DNA of 64,000 nucleotides from a virus. The stretch spans positions 6,827-70,826 of the IMG/VR virus record IMGVR_UViG_3300020122_000057, one strand, 5' to 3'. Positions 42,574-48,373 of this stretch are shown here, one piece after another (positions within the stretch are counted from its first letter, which is position 1; every line of letters starts with the position of its first letter). The notes below the pieces were generated by a model. That model ran no database searches. It had not been told where the DNA came from and saw nothing but the letters and a program-made list of their open reading frames with translations. A program made the position numbers and the translations under genes.

Positions 42574-42648
42574 TGGAGCCAAGTGGCTGAATCGAACAGC
42601 CGTTTGTGAGGTACAAGCTCACCGTAATAACCACTATACCAACTAGGC
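42574..42648 (-). tRNA. tRNA-Thr(TGT)
   Basis: cloverleaf; anticodon arm GTGAG-CTTGTAC-CTCAC; encoded CCA. Confidence 0.9.
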
Positions 42649-42650
42649 TT

Positions 42651-42724
42651 TGGTGCGGTCAGAGGGAATCGAACCCTCATTACCCGGTAGAGAGCCGGGA
42701 ATTTTGCCATTAAACTATGGCCGC
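42651..42724 (-). tRNA. tRNA-Glu(CTC), atypical U37
   Basis: CCCGG-CTCTCTA-CCGGG; CCA. Confidence 0.8.
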
Positions 42725-42730
42725 GAAATT

Positions 42731-42804
42731 TGGAGCAGATTCAAGGAATCGAACCTTGATAACGTGCTTACCAAGCACGCGCACTGCCATTGTGCTAAAC
42801 CTGC
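42731..42804 (-). tRNA. tRNA-Thr(GGT)
   Basis: CGTGC-TTGGTAA-GCACG; CCA. Confidence 0.9.
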
Positions 42805-42806
42805 TT

Positions 42807-42880
42807 TGGAGGTGGATGTGGGAGTCGAACCCACTACAATCGGGTTGCAGCCGACTAACTAACCGTTCGTCTTACCCACC
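42807..42880 (-). tRNA. tRNA-Cys(GCA)
   Basis: GTCGG-CTGCAAC-CCGAT; U73, CCA. Confidence 0.88.
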
Positions 42881-43041
42881 CAAAATATTTCCCTACCAAG
42901 AGTATGAATCTTCTCCGCCAGTTCTCTATACTCATCCGTCCACTTACCAACTGGCAGCTTCTTGGTCAGAGCCTTTAATTCGTGGAAGGCGCGTTCCGCT
43001 TCAGCGAAACGATCCATCCAGTATTTGGTTTCTTCGTTCAT
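42859..43041 (-). CDS. small hypothetical protein within the tRNA array
   Basis: 60-aa helical ORF filling the gap between tRNAs; its stop lies inside tRNA-Cys. Confidence 0.55.
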   Translation of the reverse strand: MNEETKYWMDRFAEAERAFHELKALTKKLPVGKWTDEYRELAEKIHTLGREIFWVGKTNG

Positions 43042-43046
43042 AATAT

Positions 43047-43121
43047 TGGAGCACAGTGTTGGACTTGAACCAACGTTGCCGCTTTACGAGAGCGGAGTCG
43101 TACCATCTGGACCAACCGTGC
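43047..43121 (-). tRNA. tRNA-Thr(CGT)
   Basis: CCGCT-CTCGTAA-AGCGG; CCA. Confidence 0.9.
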
Positions 43122-43122
43122 T

Positions 43123-43196
43123 TGGAGCGAAGCCACGGATTTGCACCGAGACTTTTTGCTTGGAAGGCAAAAGTGCTGCTATTACACCAGCCTCGC
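43123..43196 (-). tRNA. tRNA-Gly(TCC)
   Basis: TTTGC-CTTCCAA-GCAAA; U73, CCA. Confidence 0.88.
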
Positions 43197-43595
43197 TTTC
43201 ATACGTCTGTAAGTGCGTTCTGCATGACAATTAGCGCAAACAATCTCGCACTTTTCAATCTCTTCTAAAATCACTGTTCTAGCTCTAAAGCGAACTATAT
43301 TGGATAAGTTACCTATCTTTTTCCCGCGTACATGGTCGAAATGCATAATCCAAGGAGCGTATTTAACCTTACAATCAATACACGGCCTGTCCTTAAAGGT
43401 ATTCATCCATTTGACTTGTCGTTTTTCTCTTGCTTTAGCGCCAGCTACATATCTACTTTTATTCCTGAGATAATGTTTACGATGATATTTTTTAGCGCAG
43501 GGCTTACAAATATCCCGGAAACCATCTATCTTTTTCGCATTCTTATGAAATTCCGAAAATTCTTTGCTTTGTTTACACTTTCCACATTGTTTCAT
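43182..43595 (-). CDS. HNH endonuclease
   Basis: PCIDC..FDHVRGKK..EIEKCEIVCANCH. Confidence 0.88.
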   Translation of the reverse strand: MKQCGKCKQSKEFSEFHKNAKKIDGFRDICKPCAKKYHRKHYLRNKSRYVAGAKAREKRQVKWMNTFKDRPCIDCKVKYAPWIMHFDHVRGKKIGNLSNIVRFRARTVILEEIEKCEIVCANCHAERTYRRMKARLV

Positions 43596-43616
43596 ACTTC
43601 CAGTATATCACATATT

Positions 43617-43691
43617 TGGAGGTCAGGGACGGAATCCAACCGTCATTAATGCCTTCGGAGGGCATTGTCCTGTGCATTGAACGACCCAACC
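43617..43691 (-). tRNA. tRNA-Arg(CCG)
   Basis: ATGCC-CTCCGAA-GGCAT; T-loop TTGGATT; CCA. Confidence 0.85.
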
Positions 43692-43697
43692 TCAAAC

Positions 43698-43772
43698 TGG
43701 AGTCCCCCGTCAGAATTGGACTGACCTCTCAGGTTTCGTAGACCTGCGCTCTGTCCGATGAGCTAGAGGGAC
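43698..43772 (-). tRNA. tRNA-Arg(ACG)
   Basis: CAGGT-CTACGAA-ACCTG; T-loop TCCAATT; CCA. Confidence 0.88.
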
Positions 43773-44101
43773 GAATTTCTTCTTTTATCAGTGCGAATTC
43801 TGTGGCAATTAGCACACGTTATTTCGCACTTTTTAATTTCTTTAAGAAGGGCCTTCATAGGCACTTTATCGTAGTGACTGCTGATACTAAAAAGTTTCTT
43901 TCCTCTTACGTGGTCGAAATCCATACAAATCGGAGGAAATTTCTTTTTACAATCAACACAACGCTTCTTTTTGAACGGAAGAATTACTTCAGTGTAAATT
44001 TTCTTCTTCCGAACTTTACTCTTCTTAAAATAGACTGCTTTGTTAGCGTAATAGTTTCGCTTCGAAGCAGCACGTCTGTCTTCTATTTGAGAGTAAGCCA
44101 T
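43763..44101 (-). CDS. HNH endonuclease
   Basis: CVDC..MDFDHVRGKK..EIKKCEITCANCH. Confidence 0.88.
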   Translation of the reverse strand: MAYSQIEDRRAASKRNYYANKAVYFKKSKVRKKKIYTEVILPFKKKRCVDCKKKFPPICMDFDHVRGKKLFSISSHYDKVPMKALLKEIKKCEITCANCHRIRTDKRRNSSL

Positions 44102-44110
44102 TAAAAAGTT

Positions 44111-44181
44111 TCCGGCAGTCGGGTAGACGCGAGTGCTGAACTCGTGTGGACCCTCGTCGTCAGCAACGACTTACTACCGAA
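44111..44181 (-). ncRNA. small three-way-junction RNA with complementary loops
   Basis: closing stem TTCGGTAGT/ACTGCCGGA; hairpin apices TGCTGA and TCAGCA are exact reverse complements. Confidence 0.6.
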
Positions 44182-44222
44182 ATTTGAATCCCCGCATGTC
44201 AATCCATGCGCCCCCTAGAAAA

Positions 44223-44266
44223 TGGTCACTCTACGTCCGCGCAAGGCTCGCGTGAGTTTCCGGGAC
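44223..44266 (-). ncRNA. small pseudoknot-like RNA ending in ACCA
   Basis: GTCC/GGAC, ACTC/GAGT and an internal CGCGA/TTGCG hairpin. Confidence 0.35.
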
Positions 44267-44272
44267 TGATAT

Positions 44273-44347
44273 TGGTACGCCGCCGAGGAATCGAACCTCG
44301 CTAGCTTGCGTGTAGGGCAAGTGCATGAGCCTATCTGCCAGCAGCGT
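44273..44347 (-). tRNA. tRNA-Val(TAC), C33
   Basis: CTTGC-CCTACAC-GCAAG; CCA. Confidence 0.85.
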
Positions 44348-44350
44348 AAA

Positions 44351-44426
44351 GGAGTCCGAATCCAATGTCCCTGAGAACCGGACCCCGGTTGAAGTTCAAA
44401 GCTTGGGATAGGGCTAGCTTCAACCG
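44351..44426 (-). ncRNA. two-hairpin structured spacer RNA
   Basis: CGGTTGAAG/CTTCAACCG and GGGTCCG/CGGACTC stems; loops contain TCCC or CCCT versus AGGGA. Confidence 0.45.
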
Positions 44427-44434
44427 TTCTATTC

Positions 44435-44508
44435 TGGAGCGAAGCACGGGAATCGAACCCGTCTTTAATCGTTGGCAACGATTCGTACTGCCAATGTACG
44501 AGCCTCGC
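44435..44508 (-). tRNA. tRNA-Gly(GCC)
   Basis: AATCG-TTGCCAA-CGATT; CCA. Confidence 0.92.
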
Positions 44509-44514
44509 AAAATC

Positions 44515-44587
44515 TGGTAACGGAGGTGAGAGTTGAACTCACGGAGGTCTGCTTATGAGACAGACTTGAATACCCATTCTCCCCGTT
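44515..44587 (-). tRNA. tRNA(CAT), Met or Ile2, non-canonical fold
   Basis: GTCTGT-CTCATAA-GCAGAC; 1-nt connector, 4-nt D-loop; CCA. Confidence 0.8.
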
Positions 44588-44750
44588 AAACTTTCTTAAA
44601 ACCCTTCATTTGAAGCCACTGATCGGAATTTCGTTGCTTTTCCGTCTCAGAGCAAATCTTATTAAAGTTCTTTCGTATCTCGCTTCCGTGCATTGGACGC
44701 TCCCAACGTTCATTGCCCCGGATAATAACCGCTGTCATCTTCACAGCCAT
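44586..44750 (-). CDS. small hypothetical protein within the tRNA array
   Basis: 54-aa ORF MAVKMTAVIIRG... exactly fills the gap between two tRNAs. Confidence 0.5.
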   Translation of the reverse strand: MAVKMTAVIIRGNERWERPMHGSEIRKNFNKICSETEKQRNSDQWLQMKGFKKV

Positions 44751-44756
44751 AAAATT

Positions 44757-44833
44757 TGGTGCGCCGCCTCCGATTCGAACGGAGAAGAATTCGGGTTTGA
44801 GCCGAATATGTCTGCCAGTTGCATCAGCAGCGC
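44757..44833 (-). tRNA. tRNA-Leu(CAA), short variable region
   Basis: TTCGG-CTCAAAC-CCGAA; A73, CCA. Confidence 0.85.
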
Positions 44834-44839
44834 GAAAAT

Positions 44840-44915
44840 TGGTAGTGGTGGATGGATTCGAACCATCTGCCTTTCCCTTATCGGGGGAACGCGCATCCAC
44901 ATGGGCCTCACCACT
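44840..44915 (-). tRNA. tRNA-Ile(GAT), C33
   Basis: TTCCC-CCGATAA-GGGAA; CCA. Confidence 0.85.
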
Positions 44916-44917
44916 AT

Positions 44918-45012
44918 TGGTACTCGCCGTAGGAGTTGAACCTACTCGGCACCGCTAATCGGGCGGCAATCCAAGGTTTATAAAACCTCGCTGCATACCG
45001 ATGCTGACGAGT
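44918..45012 (-). tRNA. tRNA-Ile(TAT) with a second anticodon-like arm (GAT)
   Basis: GAGGT-TTTATAA-ACCTT plus GCCGC-CCGATTA-GCGGT in the variable position; CCA. Confidence 0.8.
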
Positions 45013-45019
45013 ATTAAAT

Positions 45020-45095
45020 TGGGGTGTCCCCTTGGGTTCGAACCAAGATAGGCGGATTCACAGTCCGGCGTCTTAACCAGTTAGACTAAGGACAC
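45020..45095 (-). tRNA. tRNA-His(GTG)
   Basis: CGGA-CTGTGAA-TCCG; C73, CCA; genomic -1 is T. Confidence 0.9.
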
Positions 45096-45102
45096 ACAAA
45101 AT

Positions 45103-45188
45103 TGGAGGAAGATAGACGAATCGAACGCCCATCCTTTCGGATGCCTCCGGGTTCAAACCGGATCGCCCACCATTGAGCGGTACCTTCC
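45103..45188 (-). tRNA. tRNA-Ser(TGA) with 8/4 (allo-tRNA-like) fold
   Basis: 8-bp acceptor GGAAGGTA/TATCTTCC, 4-bp T-stem GGCG/CGTC, TCCGG-TTTGAAC-CCGGA, long variable arm. Confidence 0.8.
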
Positions 45189-45189
45189 T

Positions 45190-45277
45190 TGGCGGAAACG
45201 GCAGGATTTGAACCTGCGATACCTTTCGGTACTCCACGTTAGCAGTGTGGCGCTTTAAGCCTCTCAGCCACGTTTCC
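45190..45277 (-). tRNA. tRNA-Ser(GCT)
   Basis: loop CTGCTAA, long variable arm, G73, CCA. Confidence 0.92.
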
Positions 45278-45288
45278 ACAAAAATTTT

Positions 45289-45363
45289 TGGTGGGCCTAT
45301 CAGGACTCGAACCTGAATTCTCCGATTAAGAGTCGGTACTTCTGCCTATTGAATTATAGGCCC
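45289..45363 (-). tRNA. tRNA-Lys(CTT)
   Basis: CCGA-CTCTTAA-TCGG; CCA. Confidence 0.92.
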
Positions 45364-45373
45364 ACGTTAAATT

Positions 45374-45449
45374 TGGCTGGTACCCTCGGACTCGAACCGA
45401 GACCCTAGGCATTAACAGTGCCCTATCCTGCCATTTAGACCAGATACCA
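45374..45449 (-). tRNA. tRNA-Asn(GTT)
   Basis: GGGCA-CTGTTAA-TGCCT; G73, CCA. Confidence 0.9.
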
Positions 45450-45459
45450 GTAGAAACTT

Positions 45460-46113
45460 TTACTTCTGCGATTGTACCAAATTATCGTCGTCTTCGTCAA
45501 GCGCTTCTTGTTTCTGTTGCGCCGTAAATCCCTGATAATCGCCAGTGCTCTTATACGACGTAAGGGTTGCGCTCAGTGAACGAGTCGAACTTGCAGTTCC
45601 CGCAGCCGACGTTGCAAAACTCATGGCGTTTGATGCCGCGATATTATACTGTGCCGCCGTCAACACCGCATCCTGATTCGCACCAAGGAAGATAAATTCC
45701 CACTTGTACTTATCGTGCTGCTCGGTAATGAGTTTCTTTACCGTAGCCGCGCTGTGTTCCTTAGAAGCGTTCTCGTAACCATCGGTGATAATCACGATAG
45801 CAACCTTGTTTGGTCGCTGACTCTCATCGCGCTTCGCCAGTTCCGCGCCGATATCGAGAATTGTCTTCCCAATGGCATCGTGCAATGCCGTCGATCCGCG
45901 AGGATGAATCGTGTGCTTTGGTGCATCCTTAATGTTGGTACGGAATACTGGTTCGTACACGTCATCAAATTGGAACAGAGCTAACTCGCACTCCTGCGGG
46001 TCTTGTTTCTGCTTGTTGATGAACTCGTCCAGTGCCGTCTGCATATTATTCAAGCAGCTTCCAATGGAACCAGAACGATCCAAAACTAACCCAATTAATG
46101 TAGCATCCTTCAC
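45460..46113 (-). CDS. von Willebrand factor A domain protein
   Basis: MIDAS LDRSGS, GSTALHDAIG, IITDGYENAS, FIFLGAN. Confidence 0.9.
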   Translation of the reverse strand: MKDATLIGLVLDRSGSIGSCLNNMQTALDEFINKQKQDPQECELALFQFDDVYEPVFRTNIKDAPKHTIHPRGSTALHDAIGKTILDIGAELAKRDESQRPNKVAIVIITDGYENASKEHSAATVKKLITEQHDKYKWEFIFLGANQDAVLTAAQYNIAASNAMSFATSAAGTASSTRSLSATLTSYKSTGDYQGFTAQQKQEALDEDDDNLVQSQK

Positions 46114-46133
46114 TGTACTTCCTCCTTAGAAAA

Positions 46134-46207
46134 TGGTCGAGGAGGAGTGAGTCGAACACTCGCCGCTGGCTTCCGACGCCAGCAGACTTCCGTTATCAGA
46201 CTCCTCG
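46134..46207 (-). tRNA. tRNA-Pro(CGG)
   Basis: CTGGC-GTCGGAA-GCCAG; C1-G72, A73. Confidence 0.85.
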
Positions 46208-46210
46208 ATT

Positions 46211-46287
46211 TGGTACTCGCGGCGGGATTCGAACCCGCGTTCTTGGCTTGAAAGGCCAGCGTCCTAGGCCGACTAGACGACATGAGC
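46211..46287 (-). tRNA. tRNA-Glu(TTC)
   Basis: TGGC-CTTTCAA-GCCA; CCA. Confidence 0.9.
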
Positions 46288-46296
46288 ACTTACATT

Positions 46297-46370
46297 TGGC
46301 GGGGCCGAGGGGAATCAAACCCCCGTTCTTCGAGCGACAGTCGAGCGTCTTGTCGCTAGACGACGACCCC
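46297..46370 (-). tRNA. tRNA-Asp(GTC)
   Basis: TCGA-CTGTCGC-TCGA; G73, CCA. Confidence 0.88.
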
Positions 46371-46376
46371 TAAGAT

Positions 46377-46451
46377 TGGTGGACAATGCGGGACTCGAAC
46401 CCGCAACTCCTCGGTGCAAGCGAGGCGTTTTCCCATTAGCACTAATCGCCC
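46377..46451 (-). tRNA. tRNA-Ala(TGC)
   Basis: CCTCG-CTTGCAC-CGAGG; G3:U70. Confidence 0.92.
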
Positions 46452-46456
46452 AAATT

Positions 46457-46532
46457 TGGTGGCATACCTCAGATTCGAACTGAGACAACCCTGCTCCCAA
46501 AGCAGGTGGGCTGGCCATTACCCTAGTACGCC
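46457..46532 (-). tRNA. tRNA-Pro(TGG)
   Basis: CCTGC-TTTGGGA-GCAGG; CCA. Confidence 0.88.
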
Positions 46533-46901
46533 GTGAACTCGTTTTTCATATTCCAGTATAGCATGGCAGTTAGCGCATAATACATCGCATTTTTCCATCT
46601 CTGCTAATACTGACTTCCAAGAATAATTTCTACTATCCGCCAATCTAAATTTCTTCTCTGACGGAATCCTATGATGAAACTCTAATGCGGTATGGTGTAA
46701 ATCAAAACCACATTTCTTACAGCCCTTAGTAAGTTTTACTTCTCGAATTTTTCCTTGTATCTTATCTCTATATCGCTTATCCCGCAACTTTCTAGTAGTT
46801 CTATTGTACTTATGAAGGCTTTCCTTAAAATTTTTACTAGATAAGTACGCTTGCCCCTTTTCGGACTTAATCCACTTTCTTTGATTCTCAATACGACCCA
46901 T
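46518..46901 (-). CDS. HNH endonuclease
   Basis: CKKCG..ALEFHH..PSEK..EMEKCDVLCANCH. Confidence 0.88.
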   Translation of the reverse strand: MGRIENQRKWIKSEKGQAYLSSKNFKESLHKYNRTTRKLRDKRYRDKIQGKIREVKLTKGCKKCGFDLHHTALEFHHRIPSEKKFRLADSRNYSWKSVLAEMEKCDVLCANCHAILEYEKRVHGVLG

Positions 46902-46905
46902 TTTT

Positions 46906-47160
46906 GGTTAGTTGATAGCCCGGTTTCTGTACTCAATATATGAGTGACAATCATTCATCTAACGCATCCAACCCGATAACCAAATGCCTAGGGCCAGTAG
47001 TTATCCTATTTGGACTTGCTCCCGGCGTGGAGTCATTTAGAGAAATACTCTAACTCTTACCCGTCACATTACTGTGCCTGCAACTTCCACAGCGCCGTTA
47101 CCCTTTGGAGACCGGAACTTCCTCCCCCATCTTCCGATGGCAGCGATTGTCTAACTAACC
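46906..47160 (-). ncRNA. rnpB: RNase P RNA, minimal (~255 nt)
   Basis: Hallmarks GAGGAAGTTCCGGTCTCC, GGAGCAAGTCCAAATAGG, AGATGAATGATTGTC and ACAGAAACCGGGCTATC; P1-P6, P15, P16 and P19 can be paired. Confidence 0.92.
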
Positions 47161-47166
47161 AAATTC

Positions 47167-47273
47167 TGGAGCAGCGAGTGGGACTCGAACCCACATGCAA
47201 CGAGTTTAGGAAACTCGCGCCTAAGAGGAGCCTGTTTAGAAGACAGGTGCCTATTCCATTCAGCCACCGCTGC
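47167..47273 (-). tRNA. tRNA-Arg(TCT) with a second complete anticodon arm (CCT)
   Basis: CCTGT-CTTCTAA-ACAGG then CGAGT-TTCCTAA-ACTCG inside one acceptor/D/T frame; 107 nt. Confidence 0.85.
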
Positions 47274-47281
47274 TCAAATCT

Positions 47282-47356
47282 TGGCGAGTCACGGTGGACT
47301 TGAACCACCACCAGCAGGGTTGGAGCCTGCCATGCTGCCACTAACACTTGCGACTC
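47282..47356 (-). tRNA. tRNA-Trp(CCA)
   Basis: GCAGG-CTCCAAC-CCTGC; G73. Confidence 0.9.
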
Positions 47357-47364
47357 GCAAATTC

Positions 47365-47439
47365 TGGTTGCCCCAGTAGGACTCGAACCTACATGAACGC
47401 CTTCAGAGGGCGTCATCCTGCCAATTAGATGACAGGGCA
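47365..47439 (-). tRNA. tRNA-Gln(CTG)
   Basis: ACGCC-CTCTGAA-GGCGT; U1-A72. Confidence 0.9.
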
Positions 47440-47441
47440 AT

Positions 47442-47517
47442 TGGTTCGGTGGGTACGATTCGAACGTACACCTAAGTGATTCAAAGTCACCCGTTCTACC
47501 AGTTAAACTACCGCCGA
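47442..47517 (-). tRNA. tRNA-Gln(TTG)
   Basis: GGTGA-CTTTGAA-TCACT; U1-A72. Confidence 0.9.
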
Positions 47518-47526
47518 ACAGAAACT

Positions 47527-47602
47527 TGGTGGACCGCCCGAGACTTGAACTCAGACCCCAGCGCTTAAAAGGCGCGTATGCTGCCACTCGCACTCGCAGT
47601 CC
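47527..47602 (-). tRNA. tRNA-Lys(TTT)
   Basis: GCGC-CTTTTAA-GCGC; CCA. Confidence 0.88.
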
Positions 47603-47608
47603 AAAAAC

Positions 47609-47697
47609 TGGTGGAGGGGGAAGGATTCGAACCTTCATAACCCAATGGGCAATCGGTGTTACAGACCGACGGGGCCACCTGTTGCCCCAACCTCTCC
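47609..47697 (-). tRNA. tRNA-Tyr(GTA)
   Basis: TCGGT-CTGTAAC-ACCGA, variable arm, 5-bp D-stem. Confidence 0.88.
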
Positions 47698-47707
47698 ACG
47701 AAACTTA

Positions 47708-47758
47708 GCGACGTGTTATCTGGCTTCAACGTCGTTCCACTCCAAGACCAGAGAGTGT
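47708..47758 (-). ncRNA. two-hairpin kissing-loop spacer RNA
   Basis: CACTC/GAGTG and CGACGT/ACGTCG hairpins; loops TCTGGtCTT and AAGCCAGA are complementary. Confidence 0.55.
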
Positions 47759-47765
47759 TCGAATT

Positions 47766-47849
47766 TGGTACCCCGCGAGGGATTTGAACCCCCATGCCTT
47801 TCGGCGCTGCGTTCTAAGCGCAGTGTGTCTGCCGTTCCACCAGCAGGGT
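47766..47849 (-). tRNA. tRNA-Leu(TAG)
   Basis: CTGCG-CTTAGAA-CGCAG, variable arm. Confidence 0.92.
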
Positions 47850-47851
47850 AT

Positions 47852-47926
47852 TGGTGGTCAACCAAGGAATTGAACCTTGTACGCGCACGGCTTCAACGTG
47901 CCGCTCTACCGATGAGCTAGATGACC
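47852..47926 (-). tRNA. tRNA-Phe(GAA)
   Basis: GCACG-TTGAAGC-CGTGC. Confidence 0.9.
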
Positions 47927-47935
47927 ACGAAACTT

Positions 47936-48013
47936 TGGTGGGCAAGGTCGGAGTCGAACCGACAGGCACTCCGTTTTAAGCGGAGTAGGTATGCCAATTC
48001 CCTTCACTTACCC
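47936..48013 (-). tRNA. tRNA-Leu(TAA), short variable region
   Basis: CTCCG-CTTAAAA-CGGAG; A73. Confidence 0.85.
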
Positions 48014-48345: not shown

Positions 48346-48373
48346 ATTATAGCACATCCTGTTTATTTGTCAA
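48346..48373 (-). promoter_or_regulatory. consensus sigma70 promoter of the RNA operon
   Basis: TTGACA-N16-TATAAT with TGn extension. Confidence 0.85.

Follow-up and report, generated by a model that had tools for sequence, protein, structure and literature searches.

RNase P RNA is regarded as a core cellular ribozyme, and the occurrence of a sequence resembling it among the tRNA genes of a phage raises the question of whether the virus carries an RNase P RNA of its own and, if so, whether that RNA is likely to work. The stretch analysed here (64,000 nt, referred to below as the window) comprises bases 6827-70826 of a record that represents the complete genome of a soil phage (70,826 bp), with direct terminal repeats and a CheckV completeness of 100%. 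According to PHROGs searches, the plus strand encodes a large terminase, a portal and a major head protein and the minus strand a family A DNA polymerase, and such phage hallmark genes flank the RNase P gene on both sides. An earlier reading made from the letters of the window (the sequence-only reading) had taken the gene to be phage-encoded, and the complete genome with these four genes bears this out.

The window was searched in full with cmscan against all 4227 Rfam families, the best match alone being kept within the RNase P clan, and the sole non-tRNA family reported was RF00010 (RNaseP_bact_a). The match lies on the minus strand at 47162-46900 with 131.8 bits (E 3.6e-40; gathering score 100 bits), its alignment spans positions 1-367 of the 367-position model, and an identical match was obtained on searching the whole record. 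The check that the sequence-only reading had proposed, an Infernal search with the Rfam bacterial RNase P model, thus assigns the gene to class A, and the description of it as a bacterial RNase P homologue with the hallmarks of that RNA holds; the coordinates given there (46906-47160) were correct to within 2-6 nt. We place the gene at 46900..47163 (-), with a length of about 261-264 nt, and from the model score and the base pairing (82/83 pairs canonical, see below) we consider its homology to RNase P RNA of the bacterial class A type near certain. Its GC content (0.46) is in line with the remaining window, and its predicted minimum free energy of -84.3 kcal/mol (z = -3.21) was equalled by one of 200 shuffled sequences. 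Close homologues were not found: identity to the 28 other RNase P RNAs compared was 44-58%, a blastn search of 50,697 GenBank phage records with the gene as query yielded just two chance matches of 25-31 nt, and a wider 2.5-kb query around the gene returned tRNA matches only from the GenBank phages.

The helices were placed by string search and their pairs then counted. The script gave 83/84 canonical pairs, from which one P10 pair was dropped, its base being already engaged in P11, leaving 82/83. Every helix named in the sequence-only reading (P1, P2, P3, P4, P5, P6, P15, P16 and P19) is present. P1 joins 47163-47153 to 46913-46903 on the minus strand (UUUGGUUAGUU/AACUAACCAAA, 11/11 canonical pairs); P2 (GACAAUC/GAUUGUC, 7/7), P3 (7/8, with a GGAA loop) and P5 (4/4) also form. 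The terminal ACCA noted in the same reading is there as letters and does not form a free tRNA-like tail, its ACC being paired within P1, while the A's that follow are able to pair with the U's immediately 5' of P1. The 5' strand of P4, AGU-U-CCGGU (47111..47119, minus strand), lies within the CR-I block GAGGAAGUUCCGG, keeps the bulged U at 47116 and forms 8/8 pairs with 46924-46917, where the CR-V block ACAGAA is followed by the P4 3' strand ACCGGGCU (46917..46930, minus strand). The P6 pseudoknot pairs the L17 letters GCCCU (46990..46994, minus strand) with AGGGU at 47104-47100 (5/5). In the P15-P16-P17 arm (46966..47015, minus strand; P15 4/4, P16 6/6) the conserved letters are those of the Rfam consensus, J15/16 reads AAAUAG, and J16/15 is GGGU at 46974-46971, the motif that pairs with the 3'-CCA of tRNA. 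The P19 hairpin ACUCA/UGAGU occupies 46931..46945 on the minus strand (5/5 pairs). The unpaired core likewise consists of consensus letters (GGAGCAA..AAAUAGG, CGGGU, UAGAUGAAUG and ACAGAA).

The covariance model leaves pseudoknots unscored, and P4 and P6 are therefore independent tests of the assignment. In P4 the phage RNA has AGUUCCGGU/ACCGGGCU in place of the usual AAGUCCGGG/CCCGGCUU, so that three pairs are changed, each of them matched on the partner strand. When the same fixed register was applied to other RNase P RNAs, 52 of the 57 scored gave 8/8 pairs, the five failures being register or anchoring problems, with six further sequences skipped where the anchor motif was cut or not found. 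The AGUUCCGGU/ACCGGGCU variant was unique in the scored set (1/57), and its pattern had one chance match in IMG/VR (L005), at a locus with no RNase P. The P6 letters are also unlike the consensus, yet all five pairs form, and overall the helix letters of the phage RNA are unlike those of every RNase P RNA compared, yet 82/83 pairs are canonical. The core letters and the pairing, kept despite 44-58% identity, indicate that the RNA is maintained rather than a relic.

The specificity (S) domain is reduced. At 47023..47097 (-) the cmscan alignment and the helix check leave P7, P8 and P9 (5/5 canonical pairs each, P9 with a GUAA loop), a P10/P11 stub with a P11-like helix (4/4) and one short P12-like hairpin (5/5), and 25 nt stand in for the 101 model positions of J11/12, P12, J12/13, P13 and P14. 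P13 and P14 and the conserved modules J11/12 (ACAGRRA) and J12/13 (GGGUGAAA-type) are absent from the alignment, as is P18, for which 0 nt are aligned against 24 model positions; the sequence-only reading had likewise noted the missing P18 and a strongly reduced S-domain without its usual T-loop motifs. Recognition of the tRNA elbow is normally the task of the S-domain; its J11/12 and J12/13 modules are conserved across nearly all RNase P RNAs, and their loss lowers activity in model enzymes. Loss of P13, P14 and P18 in bacteria is reported to be not uncommon and that of P12 rare (PMC8172020), and the C-domain of the E. coli RNA is reported to remain able to cleave once the S-domain is removed, though less efficiently (PMC5839562). 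It had been suggested that a reduced S-domain might serve abnormal tRNAs of the array. This idea gains little from the tRNAs themselves, because most of their elbows are canonical: the T-loop fits TT[CT]RA in 30/33 array tRNAs, and GG falls within the D-loop window in 31/33. Moreover, reduction of the S-domain or P18 recurs in other phage-array RNase P genes and thus need not be an adaptation to odd tRNAs here. Since unrelated phage copies lost the same elements, general streamlining under genome-size pressure is the more economical reading.

The tRNA array extends over 42574..48013 (-) and consists of 32 tRNAs found with ARAGORN and one tRNA-like gene, 33 in all; it covers all 20 amino acids, and every gene (33/33) encodes CCA, matching the GGU retained in L15. 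ARAGORN and Rfam place the RNase P gene inside this array, as had been read from the letters. Spacers are 11 nt or shorter in 22 of 32 cases; most are 1-11 nt and A/U-rich, for example AAUUU and AGUUUCGU. On its upstream side the RNase P gene follows the tRNA-like gene (107 nt, 47167..47273, minus strand), which matches the Rfam tRNA model with 48.5 bits over 104 nt (47170-47273) and whose bounds were set so as to take in the CCA end; P1 begins 6 nt downstream of this CCA. On the other side an HNH endonuclease ORF of 127 aa (46518..46901, minus strand; phrog_2255, E 2.1e-24; phrog_3106, E 2.2e-24; no Pfam match) has its AUG 2 nt past the extended P1. A sigma-70-type promoter sequence, TTGACA-16-TATAAT with TG (12/12), lies at 48346..48373 (-), 330 nt upstream of the first tRNA; it is a consensus match only, and the total count of such sites in the region is not above that in shuffled sequences. 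Minus-strand terminator-like sites are absent downstream of it until 44747, and together these two features make co-transcription of the array and the RNase P gene plausible.

For the protein subunit, the complete record of 70.8 kb was searched for rnpA (PF00825), and nothing matched at E<=10, which extends to the whole genome what had been noted for the window; the control recovered rnpA from 10 of 14 known genomes. The region P2-P3-P4/J18-2, which binds the protein, is conserved in the phage RNA. We think it probable, judging from these sequence features, that the gene encodes a working ribozyme that uses the RnpA of the host to trim the phage pre-tRNAs. The RNA would be co-transcribed with the array from the promoter at 48373-48346 and freed from the polycistronic transcript by tRNA end-processing; its complete catalytic domain (P1-P5, P15-P17, P19 and the P4 and P6 pseudoknots) would then fold and bind host RnpA, a compatible RnpA in the host being assumed, and the enzyme would cut off the 5' leaders, which are very short, from the 33 pre-tRNAs of the phage. 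The canonical contact between S-domain and T-loop is unavailable because that module is lost, and substrates would be recognised by the acceptor stem, by pairing of the encoded 3'-CCA with the retained GGU of L15 and by a contact between protein and leader. Expression, processing, assembly with RnpA and catalysis are thus what we infer from the gene and its setting.

Is the gene shared with related phages or with other viruses? Ranked by major head protein, the two closest complete relatives (59% and 43% identity) have one and no tRNA, respectively, and RNase P RNA is absent from both; nor was any found at E<=1 in the five records searched as relatives by DNA polymerase or major head protein. 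This phage lineage can therefore do without the gene, and with relatives that are poor in tRNAs and devoid of the RNA, array and ribozyme gene together are accessory and lineage-specific. Farther afield, a consensus P4 pattern identified 35 IMG/VR loci, of which 25 matched RF00010 above the gathering score. Of the ten that remained, the five loci examined at E<=1 all matched, one with 165.7 bits and four below threshold. These four are RNase P-like RNAs of 227-260 nt that adjoin or lie near tRNA arrays: L143 and L144 are identical (227 nt, 1501-1727, 80.3 bits), L145 has 260 nt (1501-1760, 60.4 bits) and L146 has 257 nt (1410-1666, 49.7 bits). With 49.7-80.3 bits against a gathering score of 100, such RNAs would be missed by standard annotation.

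Among the 30 RNase P matches on viral contigs, some of which are duplicates (L021/L039 and L143/L144), same-strand tRNAs occur in the fetched locus in 19 and within 15 nt in 14. All complete matches shorter than 300 nt (227, 227, 257, 260, 269 and 280 nt) belong to loci with same-strand tRNAs, and the 11 matches that have no same-strand tRNA nearby are all 329-508 nt long; these full-sized ones look like host DNA. Like the window RNA, array-embedded copies (L021-L055 and L142-L146) adjoin same-strand tRNAs (at 0-15 nt in the 14 of 30), and four of them are reduced in similar ways: P18 is missing from L024, P13 and P14 are missing from both L023 and L026, and L035 has neither P18 nor the larger part of its S-domain. 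The array-embedded copies differ from the window RNA in that L035, L023 and L026 keep an ACAGRRA block (ACAGAGA or ACAGAAA) that the window RNA does not have, in their 44-58% identity to the window RNA, and in being carried mostly by pieces of larger phages. As CheckV completeness is 8-33% for pieces of 22-101 kb, most of the array-embedded copies lie on pieces of phages that are much larger; the carriers also include a 49.8-kb record rated 98% complete and a complete record of 463 kb. rnpA was absent from the six phage records with RNase P RNA in which it was sought, the window phage and five of these others. A match in the GenBank record of 'Microcystis phage MaAM05' (L110, MW495066.1, 111323-119473) was rejected as a phage RNase P, the stretch lying among fabI, engB, mtgA and glyS and looking bacterial; the RNase P-like stretch is unannotated in that record. 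The other GenBank phage matches are unannotated faecal or metagenomic contigs.

A broader generalisation suggests itself, on which we judge the arguments for and against to be in balance: streamlined RNase P ribozymes may be widespread in tailed phages with large tRNA arrays, phages of 50-71 kb included, and may have repeatedly shed P18 and the elbow-reading module, down to a length of 227 nt. They would use host RnpA, would free the tRNA supply of the phage from the host pool of RNase P RNA, and would constitute an undescribed class of virus-encoded trans-acting ribozymes.

Several other explanations of the window gene have to be weighed. Assembly could have misled us, either by joining host DNA to a viral contig or through a bacterial contig mislabelled as viral, and the 11 full-sized matches, which fit host DNA, and the bacterial neighbourhood of the MaAM05 match would be in keeping with this. 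For the window phage this is barely credible, given the direct terminal repeats and the 100% completeness rating, the hallmark genes on both sides, the GC content of the gene and an independent assembly: a 684-nt contig from a soil metagenome run (X2) covers 46515-47198 with 0 differences and runs from the HNH ORF through the RNase P gene into the tRNA-like gene upstream. An identical contig in another run makes a one-off chimera unlikely; it should be noted that the soil runs may share one campaign and that one of them may be the source sample. Contigs of two further runs (X3 and X4) contain parts of the gene, again with 0 differences. Inside the RNase P gene the contigs of four soil runs show 0 differences, and they are therefore uninformative on selection. 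One contig of run X3 joins 46223 to 46310, skipping 86 nt and with them most of tRNA-Glu(ttc), which has the appearance of a deletion that arose naturally in the array.

Another possible explanation is that an rnpB was captured together with tRNA genes and is carried along as a passenger, its deletions being steps towards loss and its function gone. The closest complete relatives do without the gene, modules conserved in nearly all RNase P RNAs are missing from it, and the neighbouring HNH homing endonuclease genes point to a recombination-prone region, all of which such a history would fit. A decaying copy would hardly be expected, however, to retain 82/83 pairs at 44-58% identity to any other copy, to keep both pseudoknots through changes matched on both strands and to preserve the consensus letters of its unpaired core; its deletions, moreover, are clean, affect peripheral elements and recur in other phage copies, and we consider decay quite improbable. 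We give still less credence to a decoy or regulator that would bind host RnpA or pre-tRNAs without efficient catalysis and so divert host tRNA maturation during takeover. In the absence of a phage rnpA any bound protein would have to come from the host pool, and the reduced S-domain would suit such a role, but the active-site elements that a decoy does not need are all kept (the bulged U of P4, AAAUAG of J5/15 and GGU of L15), and the 33 tRNAs of the phage itself, all with an encoded CCA, depend on RNase P. It is unlikely, too, that the ribozyme is active without host RnpA, whether with an unrecognised phage protein or as RNA alone. PF00825 is missing from all six carrier records and many ORFs of the window match no family; on the other hand, no candidate protein was identified, the adjacent ORF being an HNH endonuclease, the protein-binding region is conserved, and bacterial RNase P RNA alone is active only at unphysiological salt. 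Whatever the case for each of these, a working ribozyme assisted by host RnpA is the reading with which the features of the locus agree best.

Comparison with known RNase P RNAs places the phage RNA close to the bacterial class A type (RF00010; the type of E. coli M1 RNA), with which it shares P1-P5, P7-P10, P15-P17, the P4/P6 pseudoknots, CR-I, CR-IV, CR-V and the GGU of L15. It differs from that class in its size (263 nt against a 367-position model), in having no P18, P13, P14 or J11/12 and J12/13 modules, and in being phage-encoded without rnpA. RNase P RNAs of CPR bacteria resemble it in lacking P13, P14 and P18, and according to PMC8172020 there are CPR forms that also lack P12. Type T RNAs of the archaeal Thermoproteaceae have likewise kept the catalytic domain and lost most of the specificity domain (PMC3579882), with a loss of P12 that is mentioned in PMC8172020. 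Type T is archaeal and works with several archaeal proteins, whereas the phage RNA has the bacterial L15/P15-P17 arm, P6 and the P7-P10 junction; membership of type T was rejected, the best match kept by cmscan within the RNase P clan being bacterial class A. The theta (HDV-like) ribozymes found beside tRNAs in gut phages (PMC10879173) are also phage ribozymes tied to tRNA maturation. They are self-cleaving, act in cis and were proposed for 3' trailers, whereas an RNase P homologue would act in trans on 5' leaders.

With respect to origin, the class that contains Candidatus Limnocylindria has RNAs near the phage RNA in size, with P13 and P14 lost as in the latter: many class A RNAs of 286-303 nt were read from it (L112-L141), and a match was present in 60 of the 61 genomes searched. 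With bacterial type A RNAs as short as these (286-303 nt), the length of the phage RNA is less exceptional than its loss of J11/12 and J12/13. Matches to the variant-P4 pattern in metagenomes and genomes had a matching 3' strand in 3 of 54 cases, and three GC-rich RNAs of 297-303 nt (L070, L081 and L083), one of them from a Candidatus Limnocylindria MAG, have the rare G67-U68 P4 variant in common with the phage RNA. Unlike the latter, these three keep P18, ACAGUGA and GGUGAAA, have a GC content of 0.67-0.71, and are chromosomal with no adjacent tRNAs. A donor inferred from the variant was rejected, as only one of the 30 RNAs read from that class carries it, and the three RNAs are no closer to the phage RNA in overall identity than other sequences are. 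The 19-nt variant-P4 pattern also recurs in genomes of Candidatus Palauibacter and Gemmatimonadota (L086, L088, L092, L093, L096, L100, L103 and others) with no CR-V partner downstream, and these matches are probably a conserved stretch unrelated to RNase P.

A literature search over the main text of papers, largely open-access ones, found none in which an RNase P RNA encoded by a phage is described. The main text of a survey of huge phages does not mention RNase P (PMC7162821), and for megaphages PMC8172020 reports only tRNAs and one tmRNA; recurrent phage-encoded RNase P RNA is thus apparently an undescribed feature of phages. Through a viral RNase P RNA within a viral tRNA operon, tRNA 5' maturation would join the translation functions borne by phages. 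Such RNAs would in addition be natural minimal ribozymes of type A, the window RNA being one in which the P7-P10 junction is kept and the modules that read the T-loop are gone, and the contribution of the S-domain, a question of long standing, would become directly testable on a natural set of enzyme and substrates, namely 33 co-encoded pre-tRNAs with leaders of 1-11 nt. Recurrence on viral contigs, in part under the Rfam threshold, means that routine annotation misses such genes.

The array itself has further peculiarities. The tRNA-like gene at 47167-47273 has a normal acceptor stem and T-arm, an additional arm of ~35 nt and what may be an anticodon loop with UCU; ARAGORN misses it by default and in intron mode reports it as Arg(cct) with a 13-nt intron. 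Seven of the 32 ARAGORN tRNAs score under the Rfam tRNA gathering score, namely Ile(UAU), Val-tac, Met-cat, Leu-caa, Ser-tga, Pro-cgg and Lys-ttt, and the tRNA-Ile(UAU) assigned by ARAGORN (44918-45012, minus strand) is 95 nt long with a long variable arm. Three HNH ORFs of the phrog_2255/phrog_3106 type are scattered through the array on the minus strand (46518-46901, 43763-44101 and 43182-43595), the one next to the RNase P gene overlapping tRNA-Pro(tgg) by 15 nt, and a 217-aa ORF within the array (45460-46113, minus strand) encodes a von Willebrand factor A domain (PF00092, E 2.2e-9; phrog_7371, E 6.6e-57).
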